Positions 4,453 to 24,190 are shown, counted from the stretch's first letter. The stretch: DNA of 32,101 bases from Methanobacteriota archaeon (GCA_018650165.1 JABIGM010000030.1:1-32101); one strand, 5' to 3'. The notes: generated by a model from the letters alone, not told the origin. Numbers and translations: made by a program.

Positions 4453-5814
4453 TTAGATTACGCCCTGAGCCATCATTGCATCGGCAACCTTGAGGAATCC
4501 TGCAACGTTTGCTCCAAATACATAATCGCCATCACGGCCGTATTTCTTTGCTGTAGAGTATGCTTGCTCGTGGATAGAAACCATGATTCCACGTAACTTC
4601 GCATCGACTTCTTCACGGGTCCAAGACATACGCAGTGAGTTTTGGCTCATCTCTAGTCCAGAGGTTGCCACTCCACCTGCATTGCTTGCCTTACCTGGTG
4701 CAAATAATACTCCGCCGTCTTGGAAGACAGTTACTGCATCAGGGGTACAAGGCATGTTTGCACCTTCGGCTACTGCGATTACATTGTTAGCGACAAGCAT
4801 CTTTGCTTCACCGCCACTAATTTCATTCTGTGTAGCGCATGGAAGTGCGACATCGACATTGACTCCCCACAGTCCATTAACCGCAGGTTCCGGCGCAGAT
4901 TTGGTGAATGTAACTCCATCGAATTTGTCAGAATATTCACTGATTCGGCCACGACGGTTATTCTTTAGATCCATAATCCAAGCAAGTTTTTCACGGTCGA
5001 TTCCAGCGGGGTCGTAAATCCATCCGGAGGAATCAGACATTGTAACTGGCTTTCCACCAAGGTCCAATACTTTCTCACAAGCAAATTGTGCAACGTTTCC
5101 GCTACCACTGATAGAGACTGTTGCTCCTTCGAAAGACTTGCCTTTAGTCCCAAGCATCTCACGTGCAAAATAAACTAGCCCATATCCCGTAGCTTCTGGG
5201 CGAATGAGAGAACCGCCGTATGAGCGTCCCTTGCCAGTTAAAACTCCAGCCTGGAAATCATTCTGTAATCTCTTGAACATTCCAAACAGGTATCCGATTT
5301 CTCGACCACCGACTCCAATGTCACCAGCAGGTACGTCACAGTTGTGGCCGATATGTCGCCACAACTCCATCATGAATGATTGACAGAACCTCATTACCTC
5401 ACCATCAGACTTGCCCTTTGGATTGAAATCAGAACCTCCTTTTCCGCCACCCATAGGTAGTGTTGTTAGACTATTTTTGAATACCTGCTCGAACGCGAGA
5501 AACTTCAGAATTGAAGCGTTTACAGAAGGATGGAATCTTAGTCCGCCCTTGTAAGGACCAATTGCACTATTGAATTGGATACGGAAACCACGGTTTGTTT
5601 GAACTGAACCATTATCATCGACCCATGGGACTCTAAAGTGAATCAAACGTTCTGGCTCTACAATTCGCTCAACAATGCCTGCTTCTACATATTCTGGGTG
5701 GGCTTTTAAAACCGGTTCTAATGATTCTAACACTTCCCAAACAGCCTGGTGGAATTCAGGCTGGTCGGGATCTCTCCTCTTTACATTCTCAAAAATCTCG
5801 TTTATGACATTCAT
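4453..5814 (-). CDS. gdhA: NADP-specific glutamate dehydrogenase
   Basis: GPYKGGLRFHPSVN, LPMGGGKGGSDF, DVPAGDIGVGGREIG, RPEATGYG, GSGNVAQ, EGANMP and GKASNAGGVATSGLEM. ATG 5814 is preceded by AGGTG (RBS-like). Confidence 0.97.
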   Translation of the reverse strand: MNVINEIFENVKRRDPDQPEFHQAVWEVLESLEPVLKAHPEYVEAGIVERIVEPERLIHFRVPWVDDNGSVQTNRGFRIQFNSAIGPYKGGLRFHPSVNASILKFLAFEQVFKNSLTTLPMGGGKGGSDFNPKGKSDGEVMRFCQSFMMELWRHIGHNCDVPAGDIGVGGREIGYLFGMFKRLQNDFQAGVLTGKGRSYGGSLIRPEATGYGLVYFAREMLGTKGKSFEGATVSISGSGNVAQFACEKVLDLGGKPVTMSDSSGWIYDPAGIDREKLAWIMDLKNNRRGRISEYSDKFDGVTFTKSAPEPAVNGLWGVNVDVALPCATQNEISGGEAKMLVANNVIAVAEGANMPCTPDAVTVFQDGGVLFAPGKASNAGGVATSGLEMSQNSLRMSWTREEVDAKLRGIMVSIHEQAYSTAKKYGRDGDYVFGANVAGFLKVADAMMAQGVI

Positions 5815-5827
5815 TTTAAGCACCTAA

Positions 5828-5893: not shown

Positions 5894-6340
5894 TTAGAAA
5901 TATGGACAGACAGTATTGAACCGTTCCAGACGCTTCAATCTGCGTTCGCCATTTGCATCTGATTCAGACATCGACCTAATCGATTCCTCAATCAAAGCAT
6001 GCTGGTCTGACTGAATTCCTAGCAAGGTACGGAGATGTTCTAAAATTGCCCATTCATCCTCCGTAATTACTTCATCATCGAGAGCTGCTACCAAAGCGGA
6101 CTGATATGTCGTTGCATCACCAATATGGTGTTGCGAATACTCGGTAGCATCGGCGATTGGAGAAGGATCGATACCTCTTGCCACATCCATTGCATCCCCC
6201 ACATCAAAAGGAGAAACCCCTAGGGCAATGGCCAATACCTTGAGAATTGAAGCTTCATCATCAGTCACAATCTCATCGCTTAGTGCAGTGGTTAGCACCT
6301 CGATATAGAGATACAGCCCTCGGCTCGCAGTTAGTACCAT
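5894..6340 (-). CDS. Hypothetical protein with two TerB-like helical repeats
   Basis: Internal duplication: TALSDEIVTDDEASILKVLAIALGV and AALDDEVITEDEWAILEHLRTLLGI. This resembles the TerB-fold DG.i...E...L...LG pattern. Confidence 0.6.
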   Translation of the reverse strand: MVLTASRGLYLYIEVLTTALSDEIVTDDEASILKVLAIALGVSPFDVGDAMDVARGIDPSPIADATEYSQHHIGDATTYQSALVAALDDEVITEDEWAILEHLRTLLGIQSDQHALIEESIRSMSESDANGERRLKRLERFNTVCPYF

Positions 6341-6522: not shown

Positions 6523-6897
6523 ATGACCACCCATAGTACACTCGTCTCACTACGAATTACCGATGAAGAGATGTCTCTTCTCGATGCTCGCGTAGGACTA
6601 GATGGAGCACGAAACCGAAGTGATGTCATCAGAGCAGCTATCCGTTTATTCCTAGATGGACAGCCTCTACTTCCTGACATGGACACAATTACAATTCCAG
6701 TAGGCCGCTCTATGAAGAGTAGGCTAGGAGACCTATACGAAATGCAAGGAGTCAGTCCTGAACAGGCTGCATCTCAAGGATTGCAAGATTACGTACGACG
6801 CCTGATCAAGGAAGAGGCTGAATTGAATGATACTCTCGCTGAAGGATTGTTAGAGTCCCGAAGCAAGACTGTAGGACGCAAGGAGTTCACTGAGTGA
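6523..6897 (+). CDS. Ribbon-helix-helix (CopG/Arc/MetJ) DNA-binding protein
   Basis: LVSLRITDEEMSLLDARVG...NRSDVIRAAIRLFL is a typical RHH. GGAGG at 6511-6515 precedes ATG 6523. A second degenerate RHH-like segment (TITIPVGRSMKSRLGDL) follows. Confidence 0.85.
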   Translation: MTTHSTLVSLRITDEEMSLLDARVGLDGARNRSDVIRAAIRLFLDGQPLLPDMDTITIPVGRSMKSRLGDLYEMQGVSPEQAASQGLQDYVRRLIKEEAELNDTLAEGLLESRSKTVGRKEFTE

Positions 6898-6924
6898 AAA
6901 CAGGGTGAGAGCCACATAATGGAG

Positions 6925-7195
6925 GGGATGGGAAAATGCGCTGGGAGAACGAAATTGGAAACAACCGTACTCCCACCTTCCGAAACGATGTTACACTACC
7001 AGGTAACATCGGTTTCGCTGCACTGCGTCTACGTGCAAAACTTGCACAAACTGGTAACCCAACACACGTCTCCCCGGGCAACCGGGGGGACTCCGATTCC
7101 GATCCTGCTTGTTGAGCAGGATTAGTTCCACACGCATCCGGACCCCACATCCGGGTGCAATTTACTCAAACGGTGCAGCCGCGTATCCAAGAACC
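6925..7195. ncRNA. Putative structured non-coding RNA of unassigned class
   Basis: 333-nt gap with no credible ORF and at least six stems: 6981-6994/7003-7017, 7033-7038/7042-7047, 7068-7077/7082-7091 (GCAA loop), 7101-7109/7115-7123, 7135-7141/7151-7157, and long-range 7017-7023/7173-7179. Confidence 0.7.
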
Positions 7196-7230
7196 TCAAC
7201 CTCAAATACCTTCGACGAAGGCATCACTAC

Positions 7231-9291
7231 ATGCGTGGCGAGCCGGGTCTCTCTTGGTTGGCACATCCCACTCCAAGGGAAGGGCAAATCGAAATGATTG
7301 CCGAATGCCTTGAAACGCTCAAGAAAGGCGGAGCACATCTCGCTAGTGCACCCACTGGTATTGGAAAAACCGCTGCAGCATTAGCGGCAGCGTTAGAGTT
7401 CGCAACCTCGTTTGAAGAGCGAAAAACAATCATGTTCTTGACACCAAGACAAAGTCAACACAGAATTGTGGTGGACACTGTACGCCGGATTAATGCAATT
7501 AGAAAGGGCGAAAAGATCACCCTAGTAGATATGATTGGCCAAGCCAATATGTGTGTTGAACCATTTGCAGGAACAAGAGGTGCTAGTTTCTCATTACTGT
7601 GCTCAAGCCATCGTAAGAATAAGCAATGTCGACCTTGGATTACAAGTGCTCCTGGATTTGAAAAAAGAATTCTTTCCGACCCCATGCATGTTGGTGAATT
7701 AGTTGAAATGAGTAAAACACATATCGAAGATGGTGCGAAACGGCAAACATGCCCGTGGAAGGCTGCAAGAAATGCAGCTAAAGAAGCACAAATTATCGTA
7801 TGTGATTACAATCATCTATTCATCGAAGAAGTCCGCAGTGCTTCACTGAAAGCAATGGACTTGAGATTAGATGATCTGGTAGTAGTCATCGACGAAGCCC
7901 ACAACCTTCCCGACCGAGTTAGGATGGGGATGCAACGTAAACTCACCCCAACAATGGTACGAAATGCTGCCAGTGAGGTTGAAGAGCACCTAGGTAACTT
8001 GCAACGAGTTGCTCAAATAAATGGTGATACAAATACATCAGTCATGGTAAAATCGTGGAGCCTTGCTGTTTGCAAAGAGTTCAGATTAGTGTTGGCAAGG
8101 GAATTCCGCCGCATGCTTTCAGAATTAAAGGATGAAAAGGAAATGCGTATTGAGGCTGAAAATGTTCTAGCATGGTTGGATGAGGCTTTTGATAAGGTAA
8201 ACGCTACTGCAAATCAAGCCACCCTCAACGGTAATGATGTTACAGCAATAACCCCCGACAAAAATACTCGCCTTCAAATGTTCAAGCACCTACTTGAAAC
8301 CAATGAAGTTGAGATTGACGATGACGGAGATAATGAGCCCTCAGCCCACCTTTTGGCCCACTTAATCAATGTTCTAGCACGATTTGGAAATGGCTCCGCA
8401 TTATGCTTGGTTTTCGAAGGTGAAGGAAAGGATGGGCGCATCATCTCACATCTTCTTGATGCAGGCTTGGTTGCGGAACCAATTCTAGAAAAGACCGCAG
8501 GTGCCATTCTAATGTCTGGAACCCTAGACCCACCACATATGTTTGCTGATTTACTAGGAATTCCCAAAGCAGCGCGGGGCGAATCGATTCATTCATCTCC
8601 GTTTGCCAAAGAGCGCAGGCCGATTGTAGTAGCGAGTGACGTTACGACGCTATACCGTGAAAGAGGCGAGGCCAATACTCAGAGAATTCGGGAACACATC
8701 TATTCTCTTGTGCAAAATACCCCTGGGAACGTTGCTGTTTTCGTTCCATCTTATCGCCACTTGGAAAATATCTTTAAATCTGTACACATACCTGGTGTAA
8801 AAAAAATGATTGAATTAAGAAGTTGGACGAAACAGGATATCGGATCTTTGATGATCGACCTAAAAGACGCACCAAGAATGGGCCGTAAAATCCTCTTGGC
8901 AGGAGTATTCAATGGTAAATTATCTGAAGGAATCGACTATGCCGATGGAATTCTGGATGCGGTTGCATGTGTTGGAATTCCGAATGCCCCCCCATCGGTA
9001 TTTCAGAAATCTTTTGGAAATTACATCAAGGATAAATTTGGCTCCACTAACCATTGGCGATATGCAAATTCTCAACCTGCGATTAATTCGATTTTACAAG
9101 CAATGGGTCGCCCGATAAGAGCTATAGGAGACCGAGCACTAATCGTATTGCTAGACAGAAGACATACTGAGCGCACATATTCGATGTGTTATCCCCCCGG
9201 CACTAAGATGAACCAAACATCAAATGCAGAATCAACTGGACGGTTTGCAAAACGATTCTTTTCCAAAGTTCACAGAGAGACTGAAATCTGA
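7231..9291 (+). CDS. xpd: XPD/Rad3-type 5'-3' DNA helicase (DinG family, Fe-S)
   Basis: Q-motif PREGQ, Walker A APTGIGKT, Fe-S Cys cluster (MC...LLC...QC...CPW), DEAH box, MSGTL, SEGIDY and QAMGRPIR. Confidence 0.93.
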   Translation: MRGEPGLSWLAHPTPREGQIEMIAECLETLKKGGAHLASAPTGIGKTAAALAAALEFATSFEERKTIMFLTPRQSQHRIVVDTVRRINAIRKGEKITLVDMIGQANMCVEPFAGTRGASFSLLCSSHRKNKQCRPWITSAPGFEKRILSDPMHVGELVEMSKTHIEDGAKRQTCPWKAARNAAKEAQIIVCDYNHLFIEEVRSASLKAMDLRLDDLVVVIDEAHNLPDRVRMGMQRKLTPTMVRNAASEVEEHLGNLQRVAQINGDTNTSVMVKSWSLAVCKEFRLVLAREFRRMLSELKDEKEMRIEAENVLAWLDEAFDKVNATANQATLNGNDVTAITPDKNTRLQMFKHLLETNEVEIDDDGDNEPSAHLLAHLINVLARFGNGSALCLVFEGEGKDGRIISHLLDAGLVAEPILEKTAGAILMSGTLDPPHMFADLLGIPKAARGESIHSSPFAKERRPIVVASDVTTLYRERGEANTQRIREHIYSLVQNTPGNVAVFVPSYRHLENIFKSVHIPGVKKMIELRSWTKQDIGSLMIDLKDAPRMGRKILLAGVFNGKLSEGIDYADGILDAVACVGIPNAPPSVFQKSFGNYIKDKFGSTNHWRYANSQPAINSILQAMGRPIRAIGDRALIVLLDRRHTERTYSMCYPPGTKMNQTSNAESTGRFAKRFFSKVHRETEI

Positions 9292-9750: not shown

Positions 9751-12700
9751 TCAGCGATTTGGAATCTCAATAACCTGTCCAAGTTCACTTACCACTCGTG
9801 TCAATGCTTCTTGTGCATTGGCTTTGTGGCTTTCACCCATCTCGTGACGACTATACCTTGCTTCTTCAAACACATTATCCAGTGCATTCAATGCATCTTC
9901 AGACAACTGCGGCAGAGCAGATCGAATCGCCATTTCGAATTCCCGAACTGTTTCGAAATCACGTCGCAAGAATCCACGTCCCATCAGTACGTGGACAAGG
10001 CTCTCGTAGCATTGGAAGATTGCTTCACGCATTGAATCTCCGGCTGCAAGTAATTCAGCAGTGTATGAGAATATGTCTGCAAGTTCTTTCGCAGCTTCAT
10101 CTGCTCTACGACGCATGATTACAAACGCAGCCCCTGCACCGATTACGAGGAGTGCAACAATATATGCCCACCACGGTACATTTGAACCTTCATCAGCAAA
10201 TGTGTAGTCTGGACTTTTGCCAGCACTGAAATCATTATTGAAGGCATTAACAGACTCCGTAGATAAGATTCCATTGCTAGTAACTGTCATCTTTAGCACA
10301 ATAGGCCCATACTCTGAATAGTCCCCATAAGGTATCTCCGAATTGAATTCAAATTCTGCGAGTCCATCGGAATCAGTTTGTATCGTCAAATCATTGATTC
10401 TAATTCCATTCGCATACTCTAGATATACATTGATGACAATTCCTTCAACACCTTGGCCTGTATCATCTGCAGTAACTGTTATTTCGCCCATTACAACTTC
10501 TTGCTCATCCTCAATAATTGGCTCAATGTCAACATCAAATGTAGCATCGATTGTAATTGCAATCGAGTTTGTCCATGCATCACCTGTACGTAGGTAGAGG
10601 GAGGAATTAACCGGGGTTTGTAACGACAATTGTGTCGGACCAGGTTCCATCCATGATGGCGCTATTGCAGTTAGAGTAAATGTACCACCATTCCAGATAA
10701 TATTCGAATTAATACATCGTGCATCTGAACCACTTGAACCACAGTCTACTCCTTCTCCAAGGATGAGTTCTGCCGCATCGATAGTGACTCCTTGGCCACC
10801 TATCTCAGTTACTCGTCCTGTAATTACAATTGGATTGTTTATTCCGTCGCCACGGACAACATAACTGACGGCAGAATCAATGTGCACGGTAACATCTGCC
10901 CAAACCAGTACTGTCGAATTAGAATCGATAGGTAGGTGCCCTGCACTACCTTCGAAACTGAATGTCATAAGATGTGCACCACGTGCATATGCAGATTCTG
11001 CACGGATATCTGTAGTAAACTCACCATTTATCGAAGTGATAGCAGTAGCAACCTGAGAACCATCGATATAGATCAAAATTGTTTCACCTGGTAAGCCATC
11101 ATTTAGTGCAGTATCGACATCATATAGTGTTCCTGAAACTTCCCAGAAATCATCGCGTGTTGCATCATTATCTACAATATCGATTGTAATTCCAGTACGG
11201 TGTGCAAGGAAGAAGGTTGTATTTCCTTGACCTGCCCGATACCAACCTTGTGCTGGAACTTCTGCATCCACTATGTGGTCACCATCGGTAAAGATATTCG
11301 GAACTTGCCAGTCAAAGGAGAAATTACCATTCGCATCTGTGGTTGCATTACCAATTGAAATTCCTTCAATTGAAACTAGTACAACCATATTCGATAGTGG
11401 ATTCATTTGGTTATCACCAACAAATCCATCCAGCGTAGTCATCTGATCTACTGCTAATGGTGATTCAATATTTATCTCAACAAATATCTTCGAATAAATA
11501 TTCCAAGTACCATTATTGGAAGATGGTAGGTACTGAAGAGTACCGGTAAATCGTGTTTCAAGAAGAACAGGTCCTAGTTCTGCATCTGCAGGAACTGGGT
11601 GTACTGCATTGAATGTACCATCTGCACCGGTTGTGACATTTGTCAGGAATATTCCACCAAGCCAAATCTCAATGGTTTCACCTTCTAGCGGATTATCAAC
11701 AATATCTAGTAAACGTCCTTGAACGGTTAGTGTATCTTCTCGGTCAACTTGCCCACCTTGCGTCAATAACAGAATCTTAGTTGGAACTGCTACTGTAAAG
11801 TTCACTGAATCCACACTTGCATGATAGTATTCAGGGTTTGCACTGTCACCTTCACCAATTGGGTTAACCCAATCTCTTCCACCGGTGAAACTAGTCTGGA
11901 TATTATGTGGCCCAGCTGCTATGTTTTCTGGAGAAGTCCAAGCGAACATGAACACTCCATCTGCAGAATTGGATTGGACACTCGAGACCGGAACGCCGTC
12001 TATGAGTAAGTAGACTACTGCGATTGAATCTACACCATCGATTTGAAGTGGGTTGCCTAAATCATCCAATAGGGTTCCATTGACATAAAGAATATCGCCA
12101 GCGGTAATTGCCGATGAACTCTCAGTGATATTGATTTCAGTTTGTCCTAACACTACAAAGAGTACTGATGTATTATCCCCAATCAATCCTATTGTGCCCG
12201 GAGTCCCAAGGAATTCCGCATTCAAATTATGGAATCCAACAGGTAAGTTTGCAGGTGTTGTCAAATTCACATCAACGATTCCCAAAGCATCGGTAGTACC
12301 AACTGTTGTAACTGGAGTTCCATTCAGTGTTACTGTTACTTGAACTCCAACTACTGGAGAACCTGTGTTATCGAATAATTGCAATCTTGCATTTACATCA
12401 TCTCCTCTATCGGTACGGTCGTTTAGAGATGGCTGATTGACACCGTCAAGAGTTGGCGTCAAGAAAGTCAGCGTGGTGTAACCTCTACTATCGAACGATT
12501 GATTTGCGCTAGAGCCAGAATAATAATTCACAGATGGAATATATTGAGCTTCAGCAATATGTGTTCCAGCCATAAATCCAGAGCCCAAGGCAATTGTTGC
12601 TTCCCATGTACCATTAGCCAGAATTTGGCCATTGGATAATGTGAATCCAGTAGGTTGATCATCAATCAAGAACAAGACTGAGGCGCTTAGAGCAGCACCA

Positions 12701-15700
12701 TTACGCAACTGAAGACCGCTACCATTGTCACTCTCTATGGTTCCAGTTATGGTAAATGCGTCACCTGCCACTGGATTTGCAACAATTGGGTCAACGACCA
12801 TAATTGTAATCGAACGTACTGTGACTGTTGAAAGGTTTCGTTGTGCAGGCAATAAATCGAAACTTCCATTGTAGTAGAATGAAATCGAGATTAGTCCTAA
12901 TGGTTGGTCGAAAGGTATTGTATGAACGAAACTGGTTCTCCCTTGAGCATCGGTTGTATTAGATGCTAGCCAAGTTTCATCAAACTTTACATCGATTGTA
13001 TAACCACCTAAAGGTTGCCACATATTAGAGGATTCAACCATTTGTAAGGTCATGTTAACATCCTCACCGCGGTTGACAACCATTGGGTTAAGCGGTTGCA
13101 TACTCTCGAATAGTGTCACACCTTGAACTAGAATCGAGTGATTACTAGTATCTGTCAGGTAGAATGCTGATGAACCCTCGACTACTGAAATCACGAATGT
13201 ACGAGGTCCACGAAGAGTTCCATTGCTTAGCACATCTGTTGGTACTGAAAGGTTGAAACTTCCATTTATTGCAGTGTATACGCCATTAACTAATTTCTCA
13301 TCTGGGTTGTCCAACCAGAACATTTCAAGTGCTACAGCAGTTGTCAGATTTCTGCTTGCGTTATCGCCATCCTCAACTTGTCCCATTACTTGGAAATTAA
13401 CTCCTGCAGTAATAGTCGATGGTATTGAATCCACTCTGATATTAGATGGCACCTGTACTGTGACATTTACTTCAGTAAAGTTGCCCCAATGCCTTGTTGC
13501 ACCTGCTATCTTTGGAGAAGATACATCGTCAAGAACTTCCATTCGTAAGATGTACTGCCCCGGATCTACACCCGAAACAGTCCACAATAATGTTGCATTT
13601 CCTTCCGCATCACTAATTGCATTACCAATCGAAATATTTGCACCGCCATAGTCCAAGATATAGTTCACTTGCGCACCACTAACATTGGAATTATCAGCTA
13701 CATCACCGACCCAAGAATTGAGATCAACAGAACTATTCATTATCGCAATAATATCTGCCGGTTGGCCTTCTGGAGTTTCTACTATGACGTCGGATTCAAT
13801 ACCCCAAGTCGTAGAAGGCATTTGCGGAAGTGCGGGTGGTACTGCCGCATCGACATACTGGTAGTATGGGCCACCAGGTTGAGATGGTGTGTCGAAATCA
13901 GTCATGATTTGAAGATCATAAACTCCTGATGGCAAATTAGTTGGAGCTACTATCGTGACGTTATAGGTTCCAGTTGTGTTGTTAAGAAGGCCATTTGCCA
14001 AATCAATAGGCCCCATCACTGTAAGCAACTGGACCATTATTATTGAGTCGTTACCAAGTACTGCAGCACCTGTGACATCATCAGAAATATCTCCAACAAC
14101 CCATGTAGTGTTGCCAAGGTATGTCCAATCATTAATGACTACTACATTGACATCAATGGTACCCATTATCCTTAAGGTTGAACTATTACTAGATGGCAAA
14201 TAATACATATTCCCATCAAAGGCCATATCGAATGCATAATCTCCTGCATCCAAACTCGAACTTGTTGTAAAAGTCGGTGATAATGTGCTTGACCCCGGGT
14301 CAGTAGTGGTATTTTCAGTAGTTCCATCAAAGTCGAAAGTGAAATTACCAGATAAATTCAAATCCAATTCACCACCAAGATGGTCGGTTACTTGAACAAT
14401 AATTCCAACAGGATTGCCACGTAATTGAGATTGTGCTTGTAATTCAAGGAACAATAACCCTTGCAACCACCATGGGCTTCCAGAGGTATTCAGCGCATCG
14501 GTTGCATTGAGTGAATCGGGATAGAACACAAGAGATAGTTCGATTTCTCCAGCCTTCACATATGTGGTATTGATATCAAGAATGTGCGATATTGAGAATG
14601 CTCCATTGACTGTTTGATTGAATAATTCGACGAATGTTCCGCCTCCATTCAATTCTCTCATTCCAAATGATAGATTACCAGACAATGCTGACGGTACTGC
14701 TCCAAAGGACATCGTCGAGCCATTAATGTAAACTAATTCATCAATCTGAAGTATTGAATTATTCGCCCCCGGTCCTTCAATTGTTGCAGTTAGATTTGGT
14801 GCATCTCTTATGTCAAGAGTAATTGAATGAGTACTAGGTCGTAAGTGGAATTGTGGAGTTCCTGCAAACGATTGTGATGTATCTTGCCAGCCACTAAATC
14901 CTAGTGTTGCAGAAATATTGGTTTTCGTTTCAAGTTCATCCAGTGTGACATTGATTTCCCACACCCCGCCTGGTCCAACAGTGCCAGACAAGTTAGTTGC
15001 TCCATCCTCTGAAGAAGTGAAATCAAGCCAAACTGTTAGTGGACCAATGTCTTCTGACCCACCGGTTTCATTGTGTGCAAACAATAATTGTCCAGATACC
15101 ACAGTTGTTGCCCCAGCTCCTAAAACTGGAGAGTCTGCTGGACCGGGACTATTGTGAGTAATGTTAGAGTCATCAGTCATGTTGACAAAGACACCCAAAT
15201 CAATTCCATCGTGTGAAACATATCCGCTTTGAATATGTTCAATCACAATACTAGCAAATCCTGGAGTCGCTGGTGTATCCATTGTTCCATTCATTGAGAA
15301 GTTTCCATTTGAATCGGTAGTGATTGTTCCAAATAGGTTACCAATAGATGCTGCCGGTCCGGGTACATCACCAGCGTCGGCAGCGCTTACTACGAAACCG
15401 CGTAGAGTAACATCAGGAATAACAGTAACATTGTCGACATATTGTAACGTACCAGATACATTCATTTCGACTAAACCAGTTCGGTCATATGAGGTAGGCG
15501 TCCAAGTGATGTTGACAATTTCAATTTCTTCTGGAGCCGGACATGCTTCGAAAGGAATCCATCCAAGATCATCGCCGCCACTTCCAGGGCTCATTTCAAG
15601 GCGAACTTCGCCCCATTGGTTGAGATTTGCACCATAAACCGCATATCCATTACCTGTCCAAGAACCTCCGCTATATCCTGTCACGAATCTAGCAGGTAGG

Positions 15701-18645
15701 CCTGCAGAACGTGCCATTGTAACGAATACCGATGTGAACTCAGCACAGGTTCCCTCTTTCGCTCGATTTAGTAACTCATAGGAAATATCTGCTTCAGGTG
15801 CAGCGCCACTACCATTGTAATTACGTTTGAAATCATATGTTGCATTTCCATCTCGCAGGAATGTTGCAATCGCATCGGCCTTGGAATAAGCATCTGTAGC
15901 TCCTGCACTACTGATTACTTCATTTGTAATGTTCATGATAAGCGATTCTGGTAGAGATGAATTCAAGAATTGCTGTGGGAGAATGGTTTCGTAGGAGGAA
16001 TTGGTTCCTGCGATTGTATTAGCAGCAATTGTATCCCAATCGAACCAATATTCGTATTCTTCAACCCACATTTCAGTGAGAAGACCTGCGGTTATGTCAT
16101 AGGAATGGGTATCATTTGATCTTGCTATTGCCAAAGTTGCATCTGACCAGAAAGTGATATTGAACTGATAAGCAGACATTGGAACCTTGCCCGCTAAAAC
16201 AGGGTTTGCAAACGCAATATTCCATGCTACTGTATCATTTCCATAAGTTGACGGTGCCAAGTGTGTCATATTGGTATATGGTACAGTGATATCAGTGTAA
16301 GGATGCACATCGGTTTCCAGACCATATGCGGCACCAGTGTAGAAATCATAGGTATGAACTCTCCAGCGGTGGACTCTCTCCAAGTCGACAACACCACTCG
16401 TGTTGTTGGCCCAGAATACTACCTCGTTTTGGTCAGCATCGTCAGATGGGTCCCATGGGTTGAAAGGTGAACCTGCACAATTAGTGAACCAGAATAGTTG
16501 CGGACATTCGTCACCATCTAACATTCCTCCACCGTCTGTATCTGGGTTCCTCCAGTCTGTTCCGGTTTGATTCTCAACTGCATCAGGGATTCCATCGCCA
16601 TCAAAGTCTTCTGGAAGAAGGTCATCAGTCGGGTCATTTTCGGGATTTGATGAATCGAAATATTCTTGCTTATCGTTAACACCACCAGAATCGGTATCGG
16701 CATTATCATCATCAGTCGACCATATGTCCTGACTGCCATTCGTAATTCCGATCCAAGAATTGTCACATCCTGTTGTGACCTCGAAATAATTGTTTAATCC
16801 ATCACCGTCGTCGTCAAGATTATTGTCACACGGTTCCATTGGGTCTGTTCCAGACATTACTTCATCGTAATCAATGACTCCATCCCCATCTGAATCTGCA
16901 AGTGTCGGATTTGAGAAGTAGCCATACACTCCAAGAGTTTCTTCCCAGTCTGCTAGGCCATCACCATCTGAATCAGAATAGTCGTCATCACAGTAATTCG
17001 GGAAAGAACCGCCTGAAATATCATGGCACCATGAATTGTTTCTGCTTTCTATTGAAGCTCCAGAAGGCGGAGTTACAGATACCCCTTGCAGTACACTGTT
17101 TACCACACCACCATAAGAGAATTGAGTATACGCCCCTGAATTATTGTAGAAGGCGATCCCCCCAGAGGGGCGTAGTCCTGAGGCATCGGTTAGAGTCAAT
17201 TGGCTGGAACCCGAATTGTAGGACACTATGGTTGAAGTAAATTGAATTAGAGAATCACAAGGGTCAGTCCCATGGGAAGCATTTGATTCATCACCATCGT
17301 TTACTCCACCAGAATCGGTATCCGCAACATTCCACGATGTGCAGGAAAGATTCTCTTGCCAATTCTCTAGTCCATCATTGTCAAAGTCACCAGAATCTTC
17401 ACGACGGGTTGGGTCTGTCTCATTGGCATCGATCAAGCCGTTGCCGTTCTTGTCTTCATCACCATCATCAAACGCATCTCCGTCCGTGTTATTGTTACGA
17501 GGGTCACTGGCTTGAGCAGGACTACCATATTGTCCGTTAATCTCAACGCCATCATTTATTCCATCGCCATCGGTATCTGCATTGGTAGGGTCTGTAAGAA
17601 GAGTCAGTGCTTCATGTGAATCGTTTAGTCCATCATTATCAGTATCTGAATCAAGTGGATTAGTTGATGTTACGCCATCGGTTTCTGCTGTCATTGTTGC
17701 ACAGCCACCTGGGCCAATTCCGAGGTGTGGCGAACATGGTGTTGTTGTTTCAGTAAACGAACCTGAAGGTCCTGGCCTGTAACATGGCTGTCCACCACAA
17801 GTAGTTGTCCAAGATGGATTGATATATTCGTAGAGATTGATTAAGCCATCACCATCTGGGTCACCATTAGCACCATCTGCATTTGAAGCAGATGTTGCAT
17901 TCAGATTGTTTGAAGCTTCCCAACCATCAGGCATACCATCACCATCGGTGTCCCAGCCATCAGGGTCTTCGTCGTATAATCCATCGCCATCATCATCATT
18001 GGTGGCACAATCAGCATCCCCATCGAAATCATTGTCAGCTGAATCTACCATGCCATCCTTGTCATTGTCAAATCCATCTGTACAGATATTTCCAACTGGA
18101 TCTTCATCGCAAAGAATGACACTTCCGGTACCATCAGAACCTGAATCGCCACATGCTAACTGGTTGTATTGCATGGCGTTTTCTTCGTCCCAATTATTCA
18201 CTGGAATGGTTCCATTCCACCAAACACCGTTATCTAGTTCAGATGTGGTTGAAGAAAGGTCCCAATTCGAAGGTTGGCCGTAATTATATTCCTGTAAATT
18301 AGAGAAACCATCGCCATCAGGATCACCGATTGCACCGTCACTATTACTGCTCGAAAGTGGGTCTAATCCATACTGCCATTCCCAGCCATCTGGTAACTGA
18401 TCATTGTCAGAATCCCAGTCATTAGGCTGGGTGTTAATGAGGTACTCAAGCCCATAAGTCAAACCATCTCCATCTTGGTCTGTAGCTGCAAGGGCAGTGA
18501 AAGATACGAACTCAATTGACGCAATAGTTGAGAACAACATCAGCATTGCAAGTCCTAGGGACTTGAGCTTCTTTTGATCTAGTTCCCTAATCAATTTAGG
18601 ACGAGCGGAAGATTGGATAGAGGAGATACGCAATGCTGACACCAT
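9751..18645 (-). CDS. Giant (2964 aa) cell-surface protein: Ca-binding DxDxDG repeats, transglutaminase-like domain, Ig-like repeats, TM helix, DUF4129-like tail
   Basis: Signal/TM at the N-terminus and >20 DxDxDG..D..E repeats. Then GTCAEFTSVFVTMARSAGLPARFVTGY (TGase-like core) and repeated ~100-aa beta-rich units (G.L.D..G.PL...T...G.F). C-terminal TM WWAYIVALLVIGAGAAFVIMRRR, then ...ETVREF...FEEARYS. Confidence 0.88.
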   Translation of the reverse strand: MVSALRISSIQSSARPKLIRELDQKKLKSLGLAMLMLFSTIASIEFVSFTALAATDQDGDGLTYGLEYLINTQPNDWDSDNDQLPDGWEWQYGLDPLSSSNSDGAIGDPDGDGFSNLQEYNYGQPSNWDLSSTTSELDNGVWWNGTIPVNNWDEENAMQYNQLACGDSGSDGTGSVILCDEDPVGNICTDGFDNDKDGMVDSADNDFDGDADCATNDDDGDGLYDEDPDGWDTDGDGMPDGWEASNNLNATSASNADGANGDPDGDGLINLYEYINPSWTTTCGGQPCYRPGPSGSFTETTTPCSPHLGIGPGGCATMTAETDGVTSTNPLDSDTDNDGLNDSHEALTLLTDPTNADTDGDGINDGVEINGQYGSPAQASDPRNNNTDGDAFDDGDEDKNGNGLIDANETDPTRREDSGDFDNDGLENWQENLSCTSWNVADTDSGGVNDGDESNASHGTDPCDSLIQFTSTIVSYNSGSSQLTLTDASGLRPSGGIAFYNNSGAYTQFSYGGVVNSVLQGVSVTPPSGASIESRNNSWCHDISGGSFPNYCDDDYSDSDGDGLADWEETLGVYGYFSNPTLADSDGDGVIDYDEVMSGTDPMEPCDNNLDDDGDGLNNYFEVTTGCDNSWIGITNGSQDIWSTDDDNADTDSGGVNDKQEYFDSSNPENDPTDDLLPEDFDGDGIPDAVENQTGTDWRNPDTDGGGMLDGDECPQLFWFTNCAGSPFNPWDPSDDADQNEVVFWANNTSGVVDLERVHRWRVHTYDFYTGAAYGLETDVHPYTDITVPYTNMTHLAPSTYGNDTVAWNIAFANPVLAGKVPMSAYQFNITFWSDATLAIARSNDTHSYDITAGLLTEMWVEEYEYWFDWDTIAANTIAGTNSSYETILPQQFLNSSLPESLIMNITNEVISSAGATDAYSKADAIATFLRDGNATYDFKRNYNGSGAAPEADISYELLNRAKEGTCAEFTSVFVTMARSAGLPARFVTGYSGGSWTGNGYAVYGANLNQWGEVRLEMSPGSGGDDLGWIPFEACPAPEEIEIVNITWTPTSYDRTGLVEMNVSGTLQYVDNVTVIPDVTLRGFVVSAADAGDVPGPAASIGNLFGTITTDSNGNFSMNGTMDTPATPGFASIVIEHIQSGYVSHDGIDLGVFVNMTDDSNITHNSPGPADSPVLGAGATTVVSGQLLFAHNETGGSEDIGPLTVWLDFTSSEDGATNLSGTVGPGGVWEINVTLDELETKTNISATLGFSGWQDTSQSFAGTPQFHLRPSTHSITLDIRDAPNLTATIEGPGANNSILQIDELVYINGSTMSFGAVPSALSGNLSFGMRELNGGGTFVELFNQTVNGAFSISHILDINTTYVKAGEIELSLVFYPDSLNATDALNTSGSPWWLQGLLFLELQAQSQLRGNPVGIIVQVTDHLGGELDLNLSGNFTFDFDGTTENTTTDPGSSTLSPTFTTSSSLDAGDYAFDMAFDGNMYYLPSSNSSTLRIMGTIDVNVVVINDWTYLGNTTWVVGDISDDVTGAAVLGNDSIIMVQLLTVMGPIDLANGLLNNTTGTYNVTIVAPTNLPSGVYDLQIMTDFDTPSQPGGPYYQYVDAAVPPALPQMPSTTWGIESDVIVETPEGQPADIIAIMNSSVDLNSWVGDVADNSNVSGAQVNYILDYGGANISIGNAISDAEGNATLLWTVSGVDPGQYILRMEVLDDVSSPKIAGATRHWGNFTEVNVTVQVPSNIRVDSIPSTITAGVNFQVMGQVEDGDNASRNLTTAVALEMFWLDNPDEKLVNGVYTAINGSFNLSVPTDVLSNGTLRGPRTFVISVVEGSSAFYLTDTSNHSILVQGVTLFESMQPLNPMVVNRGEDVNMTLQMVESSNMWQPLGGYTIDVKFDETWLASNTTDAQGRTSFVHTIPFDQPLGLISISFYYNGSFDLLPAQRNLSTVTVRSITIMVVDPIVANPVAGDAFTITGTIESDNGSGLQLRNGAALSASVLFLIDDQPTGFTLSNGQILANGTWEATIALGSGFMAGTHIAEAQYIPSVNYYSGSSANQSFDSRGYTTLTFLTPTLDGVNQPSLNDRTDRGDDVNARLQLFDNTGSPVVGVQVTVTLNGTPVTTVGTTDALGIVDVNLTTPANLPVGFHNLNAEFLGTPGTIGLIGDNTSVLFVVLGQTEINITESSSAITAGDILYVNGTLLDDLGNPLQIDGVDSIAVVYLLIDGVPVSSVQSNSADGVFMFAWTSPENIAAGPHNIQTSFTGGRDWVNPIGEGDSANPEYYHASVDSVNFTVAVPTKILLLTQGGQVDREDTLTVQGRLLDIVDNPLEGETIEIWLGGIFLTNVTTGADGTFNAVHPVPADAELGPVLLETRFTGTLQYLPSSNNGTWNIYSKIFVEINIESPLAVDQMTTLDGFVGDNQMNPLSNMVVLVSIEGISIGNATTDANGNFSFDWQVPNIFTDGDHIVDAEVPAQGWYRAGQGNTTFFLAHRTGITIDIVDNDATRDDFWEVSGTLYDVDTALNDGLPGETILIYIDGSQVATAITSINGEFTTDIRAESAYARGAHLMTFSFEGSAGHLPIDSNSTVLVWADVTVHIDSAVSYVVRGDGINNPIVITGRVTEIGGQGVTIDAAELILGEGVDCGSSGSDARCINSNIIWNGGTFTLTAIAPSWMEPGPTQLSLQTPVNSSLYLRTGDAWTNSIAITIDATFDVDIEPIIEDEQEVVMGEITVTADDTGQGVEGIVINVYLEYANGIRINDLTIQTDSDGLAEFEFNSEIPYGDYSEYGPIVLKMTVTSNGILSTESVNAFNNDFSAGKSPDYTFADEGSNVPWWAYIVALLVIGAGAAFVIMRRRADEAAKELADIFSYTAELLAAGDSMREAIFQCYESLVHVLMGRGFLRRDFETVREFEMAIRSALPQLSEDALNALDNVFEEARYSRHEMGESHKANAQEALTRVVSELGQVIEIPNR
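16440..18483 (-). repeat. Thrombospondin type-3-like / Ca-binding DxDxDG protein repeats
   Basis: Recurrent DSDNDQLPDGWE, DPDGDGFSNLQE, DTDGDGMPDGWE, DTDNDGLNDSHE, DTDGDGINDGVE, DSDGDGLADWEE, DFDGDGIPDAVE, etc. Confidence 0.85.
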
Positions 18646-24104: not shown

Positions 24105-24190
24105 GCAGGGGTAGCCGAGTTGGTCAAAGGCGCCGGGCTTAAGATCCGGTCTCAATGGGTTCGTGAGTTCAAATCTCACCCCCTGCACCA
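24105..24190 (+). tRNA. tRNA-Leu (anticodon TAA), CCA encoded
   Basis: Acceptor GCAGGGG/CCCCTGC, D-arm with GG, anticodon arm CCGGG-CTTAAGA-TCCGG, long variable arm, T-arm GTGAG-TTCAAAT-CTCAC, discriminator A plus CCA. Confidence 0.97.

Follow-up and report, generated by a model that had tools for sequence, protein, structure and literature searches.

A conserved small ORF interleaved with a pseudoknotted RNA fold downstream of the tandem ribbon-helix-helix gene of Poseidoniales

Genes and signals flanking the interval

The window analysed in this study is a 32,101-nucleotide stretch of DNA from a Methanobacteriota archaeon of marine Group II (GCA_018650165.1, JABIGM010000030.1:1-32101). In this window, a gene for a ribbon-helix-helix (RHH) protein is followed by a gap at 6898-7230 and then by a gene for an XPD-type helicase (xpd), all co-oriented on the + strand. 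The features that frame the gap are the following:

6523-6897, + strand: tandem RHH gene, 124 aa, with Pfam RHH_1 at residues 18-55
7195-7216, + strand: conserved box CTCAACCTCAAATACCTTCGAC, read as a putative BRE/TATA of leaderless xpd, outside the RNA element
7231-9291, + strand: XPD-type helicase gene, 686 aa, with Pfam DEAD_2 and Helicase_C_2

A second beta-alpha-alpha unit is visible in the alignment of the RHH protein, which thus contains two RHH-like units in tandem. This tandem-RHH gene is present as a single copy in 360 of the 401 genomes of the order Poseidoniales, with all 26 genera represented, and was found in none of 45 genomes from other families of the class. When the protein was compared with the NCBIfam models of the cell-cycle regulators aCcr1 and CdrS, the best scores reached 16-28 bits, far short of the cut-offs of 60 and 100, and only the generic RHH fold is common to them.

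The box upstream of xpd is conserved in genus g1 (CTCAACCTCAAATACC), and CCCAATCCTTTAGAGG is found at an equal distance in other genera. The centre of the box is located ~26 nt 5' of the xpd ATG, and the box looks like a putative promoter of a leaderless xpd mRNA.

A pseudoknotted fold conserved on the + strand

A first-pass annotation of the sequence had described the gap as GC-rich and packed with helices, favouring the + strand. The GC content is indeed 0.53-0.55 in the element versus 0.42-0.47 in the flanks, and the + strand folds at -126.9 kcal/mol with a z-score of -6.6 relative to dinucleotide shuffles, compared with -2.65 for the - strand. BLASTN recovered the gap in 19 of the 24 same-genus genomes (74-92% identity) and parts of it in four more genera of the family, and RNAalifold on the 19 same-genus orthologues yielded 71 pairs, 22 of which contain compensatory changes. 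Because circularity had to be avoided, 43 distinct sequences from four genera were aligned twice without reference to structure: one alignment was protein-guided inside the open reading frame (ORF) described below, and the other (A4) was generated by plain MAFFT. Two of the 45 sequences of family f1 (L019 and L024), which have frameshifted ORFs, one in a G-run, were excluded from the codon analyses. The helices considered are listed below:

6882-6913, + strand: H0, junction hairpin, UUCACU 6886-6891 / GGUGAG 6904-6909
6926-6931 / 6976-6981, + strand: H1, candidate helix in which the 3' half of the Shine-Dalgarno (SD) sequence and the spacer pair with an internal anti-SD mimic, CCACCUUCC
6942-6947 / 6970-6975, + strand: H2, start-proximal hairpin, 91% paired, three pairs with double changes
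6982-6994 / 7003-7016, + strand: H3, long hairpin, double changes in 10 of 13 pairs
6997-7002 (H3 loop) / 7051-7056, + strand: pseudoknot, 81-84% paired versus 5-53% in slid controls
7017-7025 / 7171-7179, + strand: H4, long-range helix that closes the 3' multi-branch domain, ~80% paired, 4-5 double-changed pairs
7033-7038 / 7042-7047, + strand: H6, short hairpin GUGCAA/UUGCAC, 85-96% paired, inner pairs covary
7057-7091, + strand: CA-rich single strand AACCCAACACAC, then GC hairpin H7 (7068-7077 / 7082-7091)
7101-7109 / 7115-7123, + strand: H8, 75-87% paired, three double-changed pairs
7134-7142 / 7150-7158, + strand: H9, 3'-UTR hairpin with the conserved loop ACCCCAC, 96% paired, five double-changed pairs

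Conservation and covariation in relatives had been proposed in the first-pass annotation as a check on its structured RNA, and both were found. Over the 43 sequences, 86.3% of the pairing cells were paired, versus 33-45% in controls slid by 1-3 columns, with both alignments giving like results. Thirty-six of the 73 pairs have changed on both sides (16-22 in the slid controls), and the covariation score was 0.292 (0.06-0.10 in the slid controls). None of 500 column shuffles matched the observed values, save for the count of further pair types, which was matched by 165 of the 500. The best supported elements are H3, H7, H9, H2, H8 and the pseudoknot, and the support for the long-range helix H4 is moderate. 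The pseudoknotted multi-hairpin fold on the + strand is real and has been kept by evolution.

The five local stems drawn in the first-pass annotation are present, and compensatory changes have preserved them in relatives: 6981-6994 / 7003-7017, interrupted by a single bulge, 7068-7077 / 7082-7091 with the loop GCAA, 7101-7109 / 7115-7123, a part of 7134-7142 / 7150-7158, and 7033-7038 / 7042-7047. The pairing of 6997-7002 with 7051-7056, suggested there as a possible pseudoknot, is also present and covaries across relatives, with the variants GCCAG/CUGGC, GUCAG/CUGAC, ACCAG/CUGGU, GUCCAG/CUGGAC, GGCCA/UGGCC, CGUCC/GGACG and GGUCAA/UUGGCC. The loop of H3 supplies the 5' strand of this pseudoknot, and the amino acids encoded by the H3 arms vary freely. 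The arms of H2 are GGGAG/CUCCC in g1 versus UGGCA/UGCCA in other genera, and in family f3 its position is occupied by a GC-rich hairpin with an 11-12 bp G:C helix. H7 is 94% paired, with double changes in five pairs; its GNRA loop, which had been regarded as a feature, is present here but is not conserved, with loops of 4-13 nt of varied sequence among relatives. The arms of H9 are variously GCACCCGG/CCGGGUGC, GUGCUCAGG/CCUGGGCAC and GUGUUGCGCA/UGCGCAACAC.

Two long-range pairings of the first-pass annotation fared less well. The helix now called H4 stands in so far as it is ~80% paired, but it shows few double changes and is weaker outside genus g1, and in g22 an alternative local 3' hairpin is possible instead. 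The closing stem placed at 6955-6963 / 7182-7190 was dropped, with both segments varying freely in relatives. H1 is 92-93% paired and nearly invariant, and is therefore without covariation support and unproven.

Three further candidates were rejected. The RNAalifold pairing of GGAGG 6921-6925 with CCUUC at ~7209-7213 is invariant on both sides, and its 3' side falls inside the putative xpd promoter. The RNAalifold helix GUC 7027-7029 / GGY 7054-7056 was abandoned for the covarying pseudoknot, which uses the same 3' bases. The helix of a 5' hairpin, GGU-GAGA-GCC at 6904-6913, is not kept outside g1, and GGUGAGAG is better taken as SD-like. The conserved unpaired motifs of the element are AACCCAACACAC, GACUCCGAUUCC, GUUCCAC and the loop ACCCCAC.

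A search of 6800-7330 on both strands with the covariance models of Rfam 15 gave no matches, either at the gathering score or at E <= 10, and this includes the two models that had been singled out for checking, RNaseP_arch (RF00373) and Archaea_SRP (RF01857). The element resembles these two as a GC-rich, multi-helix archaeal RNA of ~300 nt with a pseudoknot or long-range helices, but differs from them in having no covariance-model match even at this permissive threshold. The true RNase P RNA (C49:12849-13145, 223.7 bits) and SRP RNA (C1:130-432, 106.3 bits) of this genome are located on other contigs, and the element is therefore neither of them; the first-pass annotation had found their canonical motifs absent by eye.

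A conserved small ORF inside the fold

The same interval contains a small ORF that is preceded by an extended SD sequence:

6921-6929, + strand: extended SD GGAGGGGAU, 6 nt before the start codon
6936-7115, + strand: small ORF (P0001), 59 aa, MRWENEIGNNRTPTFRNDVTLPGNIGFAALRLRAKLAQTGNPTHVSPGNRGDSDSDPAC, conserved frame, stop codon at 7113-7115

The ORF consists of 59-62 codons in 18 of the 19 same-genus genomes, and the exception carries a 1-nt deletion in a G-run. In the codon-blind alignment A4, all 13 gap blocks within the ORF are multiples of three, compared with 3 of 16 in the following 65 nt. At one column, located in the loop of H8, the stop codon is variously TGA, TAA or TAG, and this stop-in-loop arrangement is also found in the f3 genus g4. 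The segment AALRLRA shows only synonymous differences between genera (GCU GCA CUG CGU CUA CGU GCA versus GCC GCU UUG CGU CUG CGU GCC). Both GGAGGGGAU and the AUG are invariant in the 43 sequences, and so is the SD-like GGUGA located further upstream. The 16S rRNA of this genome ends with ...GGAUCACCUCCU, and GGAGGGGAU and this GGUGA match its tail GAUCACCUCCU; on sequence grounds, this match may be taken as a translation signal, not as proof of translation. Homologues form 117 clusters, all of which are Poseidoniales 'hypothetical proteins' of 59-66 aa, and a profile built from 15 members detected one copy in 176 of the 199 family genomes. The ORF is under coding constraint.

Alternative starts at ATG 6919 and ATG 6928 were rejected, as that frame is broken in most relatives, and readthrough beyond the ORF stop was rejected because the indels past the stop are not multiples of three. 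The start of the small ORF shifts by lineage between the two ATGs of GGGGATGGGA(AA)ATG: the frame begins at the first ATG in L066 (genome G027, family f2), and both ATGs are in frame in the g22 loci L037 and L038.

Searches with the 59-aa product found no match in Pfam or NCBIfam at E <= 10 and no usable match in the ESM Atlas. AlphaFold2, supplied with 15 homologues, gave a model with a pLDDT of 57, in which one helix (residues 23-39, NIGFAALRLRAKLAQTG) is formed and the rest is disordered. The product is hydrophilic, has no hydrophobic or transmembrane stretch, and its sole helix is basic. Overall, most of the peptide is predicted to be disordered, apart from the single basic helix (GFAALRLRAKLAQ), and its tail is acidic. 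The predicted tryptic peptides of the ORF include NDVTLPGNIGFAALR and LAQTGNPTHVSPGNR. A complex prediction for the RHH protein and the small protein scored 0.00, which counts neither for nor against binding.

Interleaved protein and RNA constraints

The pN/pS of the whole ORF, 0.70, indicates weak constraint for a protein and is near the values of the other frames. The segments differ widely, as listed below:

MRWE: pN/pS 0.25, protein-like purifying selection
GFAALRLRAK: pN/pS 0.30, protein-like purifying selection
SDSDPAC: pN/pS 0.21, protein-like purifying selection
TPTFR (anti-SD-like CCACCUUCC): pN/pS 3.4, synonymous sites frozen
H7 hairpin: pN/pS 1.7, synonymous sites frozen
H3 arms: pN/pS 0.66, amino acids near neutral, pairing kept
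H2 loop: pN/pS 0.91, amino acids near neutral, unpaired

Given this segment-wise pattern, selection acts on these 180 nt simultaneously as coding sequence and as paired RNA, with the two kinds of constraint interleaved.

The whole-ORF value, together with the predicted disorder of much of the peptide and the freedom of the amino acids encoded in stems, would suit a pure non-coding RNA, with an ORF that escapes translation altogether and stays open only as a side effect of selection on the RNA. We regard this explanation as improbable. The gap blocks in multiples of three inside and not outside the ORF, the stop of varying identity at a single position, the exclusively synonymous changes in AALRLRA and the pN/pS of 0.2-0.3 in three segments argue against it, as do the invariant extended SD and AUG, with an SD that matches the genome's own 16S tail, and the retention of the ORF in two families at low identity. 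The first-pass proposal of a new class of archaeal non-coding RNA thus stands in one part, namely a conserved fold that belongs to no Rfam family, but not in the other, because a conserved, SD-led ORF of 59-62 codons lies inside the fold. The description that suits the element best is a structured coding RNA, of the dual-function or structured-mRNA kind, and not a new class of non-coding RNA. Both its protein and its fold are uncatalogued in Rfam, Pfam and NCBIfam.

Distribution and linkage to the RHH gene

The element is always located 3' of the RHH gene. In most genera it is the immediate 5' neighbour of xpd, in the same orientation, an arrangement that could suggest a cis-regulatory leader or riboswitch of xpd, the former of which had been offered in the first-pass annotation. 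In genus g7, however, a gene of 370-430 aa parts the element from xpd while the linkage between RHH and the element is kept, and a conserved promoter-like box is found between the element and the xpd start. The separation in g7 and the presence of this box indicate that the element is not an xpd leader. Furthermore, the segment from the fold to the box varies freely in both sequence and length, and we give the leader explanation almost no credence. It is the RHH gene, and not xpd, that the element accompanies.

In families f2 and f3, the RHH stop is directly followed by GGTGAGAG...GGGATG and then by a very GC-rich hairpin and an ORF of 36-88 aa; in f3, this stop and the SD share nucleotides (TGAGGTGAGAG). 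The f2/f3 ORF has diverged and is of low identity, and it shares the core G-F-x-x-L-R-x-R-A-(K/R). In the f3 genera g7 and g8, CAACACAC and a GUCCC..GGGAC element are found after the stop codon and covary there. This version consists of the motif AAUCAACACACACACC and the hairpin GUCCCGCCC..GGGCGGGAC, with GCCC/GGGC versus GCAC/GUGC, and it is the counterpart of AACCCAACACAC plus H7, which is coding in this window. CAACACAC and the hairpin are thus kept both in a coding position (f1) and in a 3' UTR (f3 genera g7 and g8), and are therefore maintained as RNA regardless of translation. In g8, the element measures 220-226 nt when counted from GGTGAGAG to the last base of the 3' hairpin.

The g7 loci in which an ORF lies between the RHH/small-ORF module and xpd (L065, L067, L069 and L071) are Thalassarchaeaceae-like.

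A probable structured second cistron of the RHH operon

The explanation that we consider reasonably probable is that the interval is the second cistron of the RHH operon, which is translationally coupled to the first and encodes a small protein of 59 aa here and of 50-88 aa in the order as a whole, and that the fold acts in cis on the expression of the small ORF; this cis action is inferred. The folded mRNA would span from the RHH stop codon to ~7180 and would include the pseudoknot. H0 has the RHH stop codon (6895-6897) in its loop and the first SD-like GGUGA (6904-6908) in its 3' arm. In per-sequence MFE folds, H0 was found in four genera with differing arms (UUCACU/GGUGAG, CACC/GGUG, CCAC/GUGG, CACCC/GGGUG and UACCA/UGGUG), and the synonymous sites of the last eight RHH codons are frozen, with an entropy of 0-0.25 versus ~1.3 elsewhere in the gene. 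An H0 with varied arms together with these frozen codons is a classical arrangement for translational coupling. In such an arrangement, H0 would mask the first SD-like GGUGA until ribosomes that complete RHH translation unfold it, thereby coupling the two cistrons. The extended SD and spacer could in turn pair with the internal copy of the 16S anti-SD (CCACCUUCC), and the hairpin starting 7 nt past the AUG may serve as a further element of the gate. The pseudoknotted 3' domain and the hairpins of the 3' UTR would either determine how stable the RNA is or recruit a factor that adjusts the gate.

Evidence at the RNA level was found in Logan contigs from three runs of three studies, which extend from 6840/6849 to 7063/7075 and are 100% identical to the window, and a Logan contig from one metatranscriptome run covers 6684-6877. 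These contigs are short and carry no ends, strand or level, and the parts that they leave uncovered mean nothing.

The fold, with its covarying pseudoknot and conserved single-stranded CA-rich and C-rich motifs, is more elaborate than simple translational gating would need, which hints at an RNA function of its own; such a role independent of the ORF is also hinted at because CAACACAC and the hairpin are kept both inside and outside the ORF. A rival explanation is accordingly a dual-function RNA, that is, a peptide mRNA that is also a stable, abundant, trans-acting species (scaffold, sponge or base-pairing regulator), acting through the conserved single-stranded CA-rich and C-rich motifs. We regard this as possible but rather unlikely. 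A conserved ORF under coding constraint and a covariation-supported structure, two hallmarks of dual-function RNAs, are both found here. The conserved tertiary architecture with its covarying pseudoknot also speaks for a trans-acting species, as do the conserved unpaired motifs (AACCCAACACAC, GACUCCGAUUCC, GUUCCAC and the ACCCCAC loop) and the retention of CAACACAC and the hairpin outside the ORF in f3.

Comparison with known RNAs

SgrS/SgrT, RNAIII/delta-haemolysin and SR1/SR1P are bacterial dual-function (coding) small RNAs. The element is similar to them in that a short transcript carries a small protein and a conserved RNA structure on one molecule. In contrast to these RNAs, in which the two constraints reside in separate modules, here they are interleaved inside the ORF, and the element is archaeal and a distal operon cistron, whereas the bacterial RNAs are encoded by stand-alone sRNA genes.

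Further comparators are the mRNAs of hok-family type I toxins and the long-range translational control of the RNA phage MS2, with which the element shares covarying helices in coding sequence, a putatively occluded ribosome-binding site and probable coupling to an upstream frame; it differs from them in encoding a non-hydrophobic peptide and in being a single-copy chromosomal core gene. By analogy with hok, the element might be a folded, translationally inert mRNA for a toxic peptide, with RHH as a toxin-antitoxin-like partner. Although its highly structured mRNA, the covariation in the coding region, the possible long-range helix, the predicted SD occlusion and an upstream partner of the RHH fold, which is common among antitoxins, are all compatible with such a role, the peptide is hydrophilic and has no transmembrane stretch, and the module is single-copy, syntenic and core to the whole order, neither patchy nor mobile. 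We therefore consider a type I toxin-like function highly improbable, and retain the structured second cistron as the preferred explanation.

A literature search for structured RNAs of Poseidoniales found nothing except Thalassoarchaea ncRNA 1 (Tan1), which Hou et al. (2016, Sci Rep 6:35470, PMC5069720) describe as a 229-nt structured unknown non-coding RNA of Candidatus Thalassoarchaea, fifth in rank in euryarchaeal RNA-seq. Like the element, Tan1 comes from marine Group II archaea, has a complex structure and a similar size, and is absent from Rfam. It differs in being described as non-coding and in coming from the other family (Thalassoarchaea), and the two were compared by description and length. 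The abundance of Tan1 as given there, and its 229 nt compared with the 220-226 nt of the g8 form, would fit the dual-function explanation, a match that is one of length compatibility only. The element may be the Tan1 RNA. An order-wide archaeal dual-function RNA, possibly Tan1, expressed with its peptide under the control of the Poseidoniales-specific tandem RHH, is a tentative proposal that we put forward with low confidence. If it held, on what we judge to be a minority chance, the element would have no described precedent in Archaea as a deeply conserved RNA that is both coding and structured, and it would belong to a group that ranks among the most abundant archaea of the surface ocean.

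Because marine Group II archaea, although abundant, are uncultured, their biology offers few handles, among which are the conserved genes specific to the order. In this case, ~290 nt are under two superimposed kinds of selection, for a small protein and for a pseudoknotted fold, and are tied to an order-specific tandem-RHH gene. The element illustrates cleanly, in a natural setting, how protein and RNA-structure constraints trade off against each other. Gene callers and non-coding RNA screens each catch half of such an element, which is suited both to Rfam-type and to small-protein catalogues, and it may account for an 'unknown ncRNA' that is highly expressed in metatranscriptomes of the ocean.

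Other features of the window

On the - strand upstream of the RHH gene, a 148-aa ORF at 5894-6340 has no Pfam family, and a Glu/Leu/Phe/Val dehydrogenase gene (ELFV_dehydrog, E = 2e-87) is located at 4453-5823. Just downstream of xpd, a very long ORF of 2964 aa occupies 9751-18645 on the - strand. An 83-nt tRNA gene on the + strand at 24105-24187 (Rfam tRNA, 61.2 bits) has a long variable arm and the anticodon loop CUUAAGA, and probably encodes tRNA-Leu(UAA).
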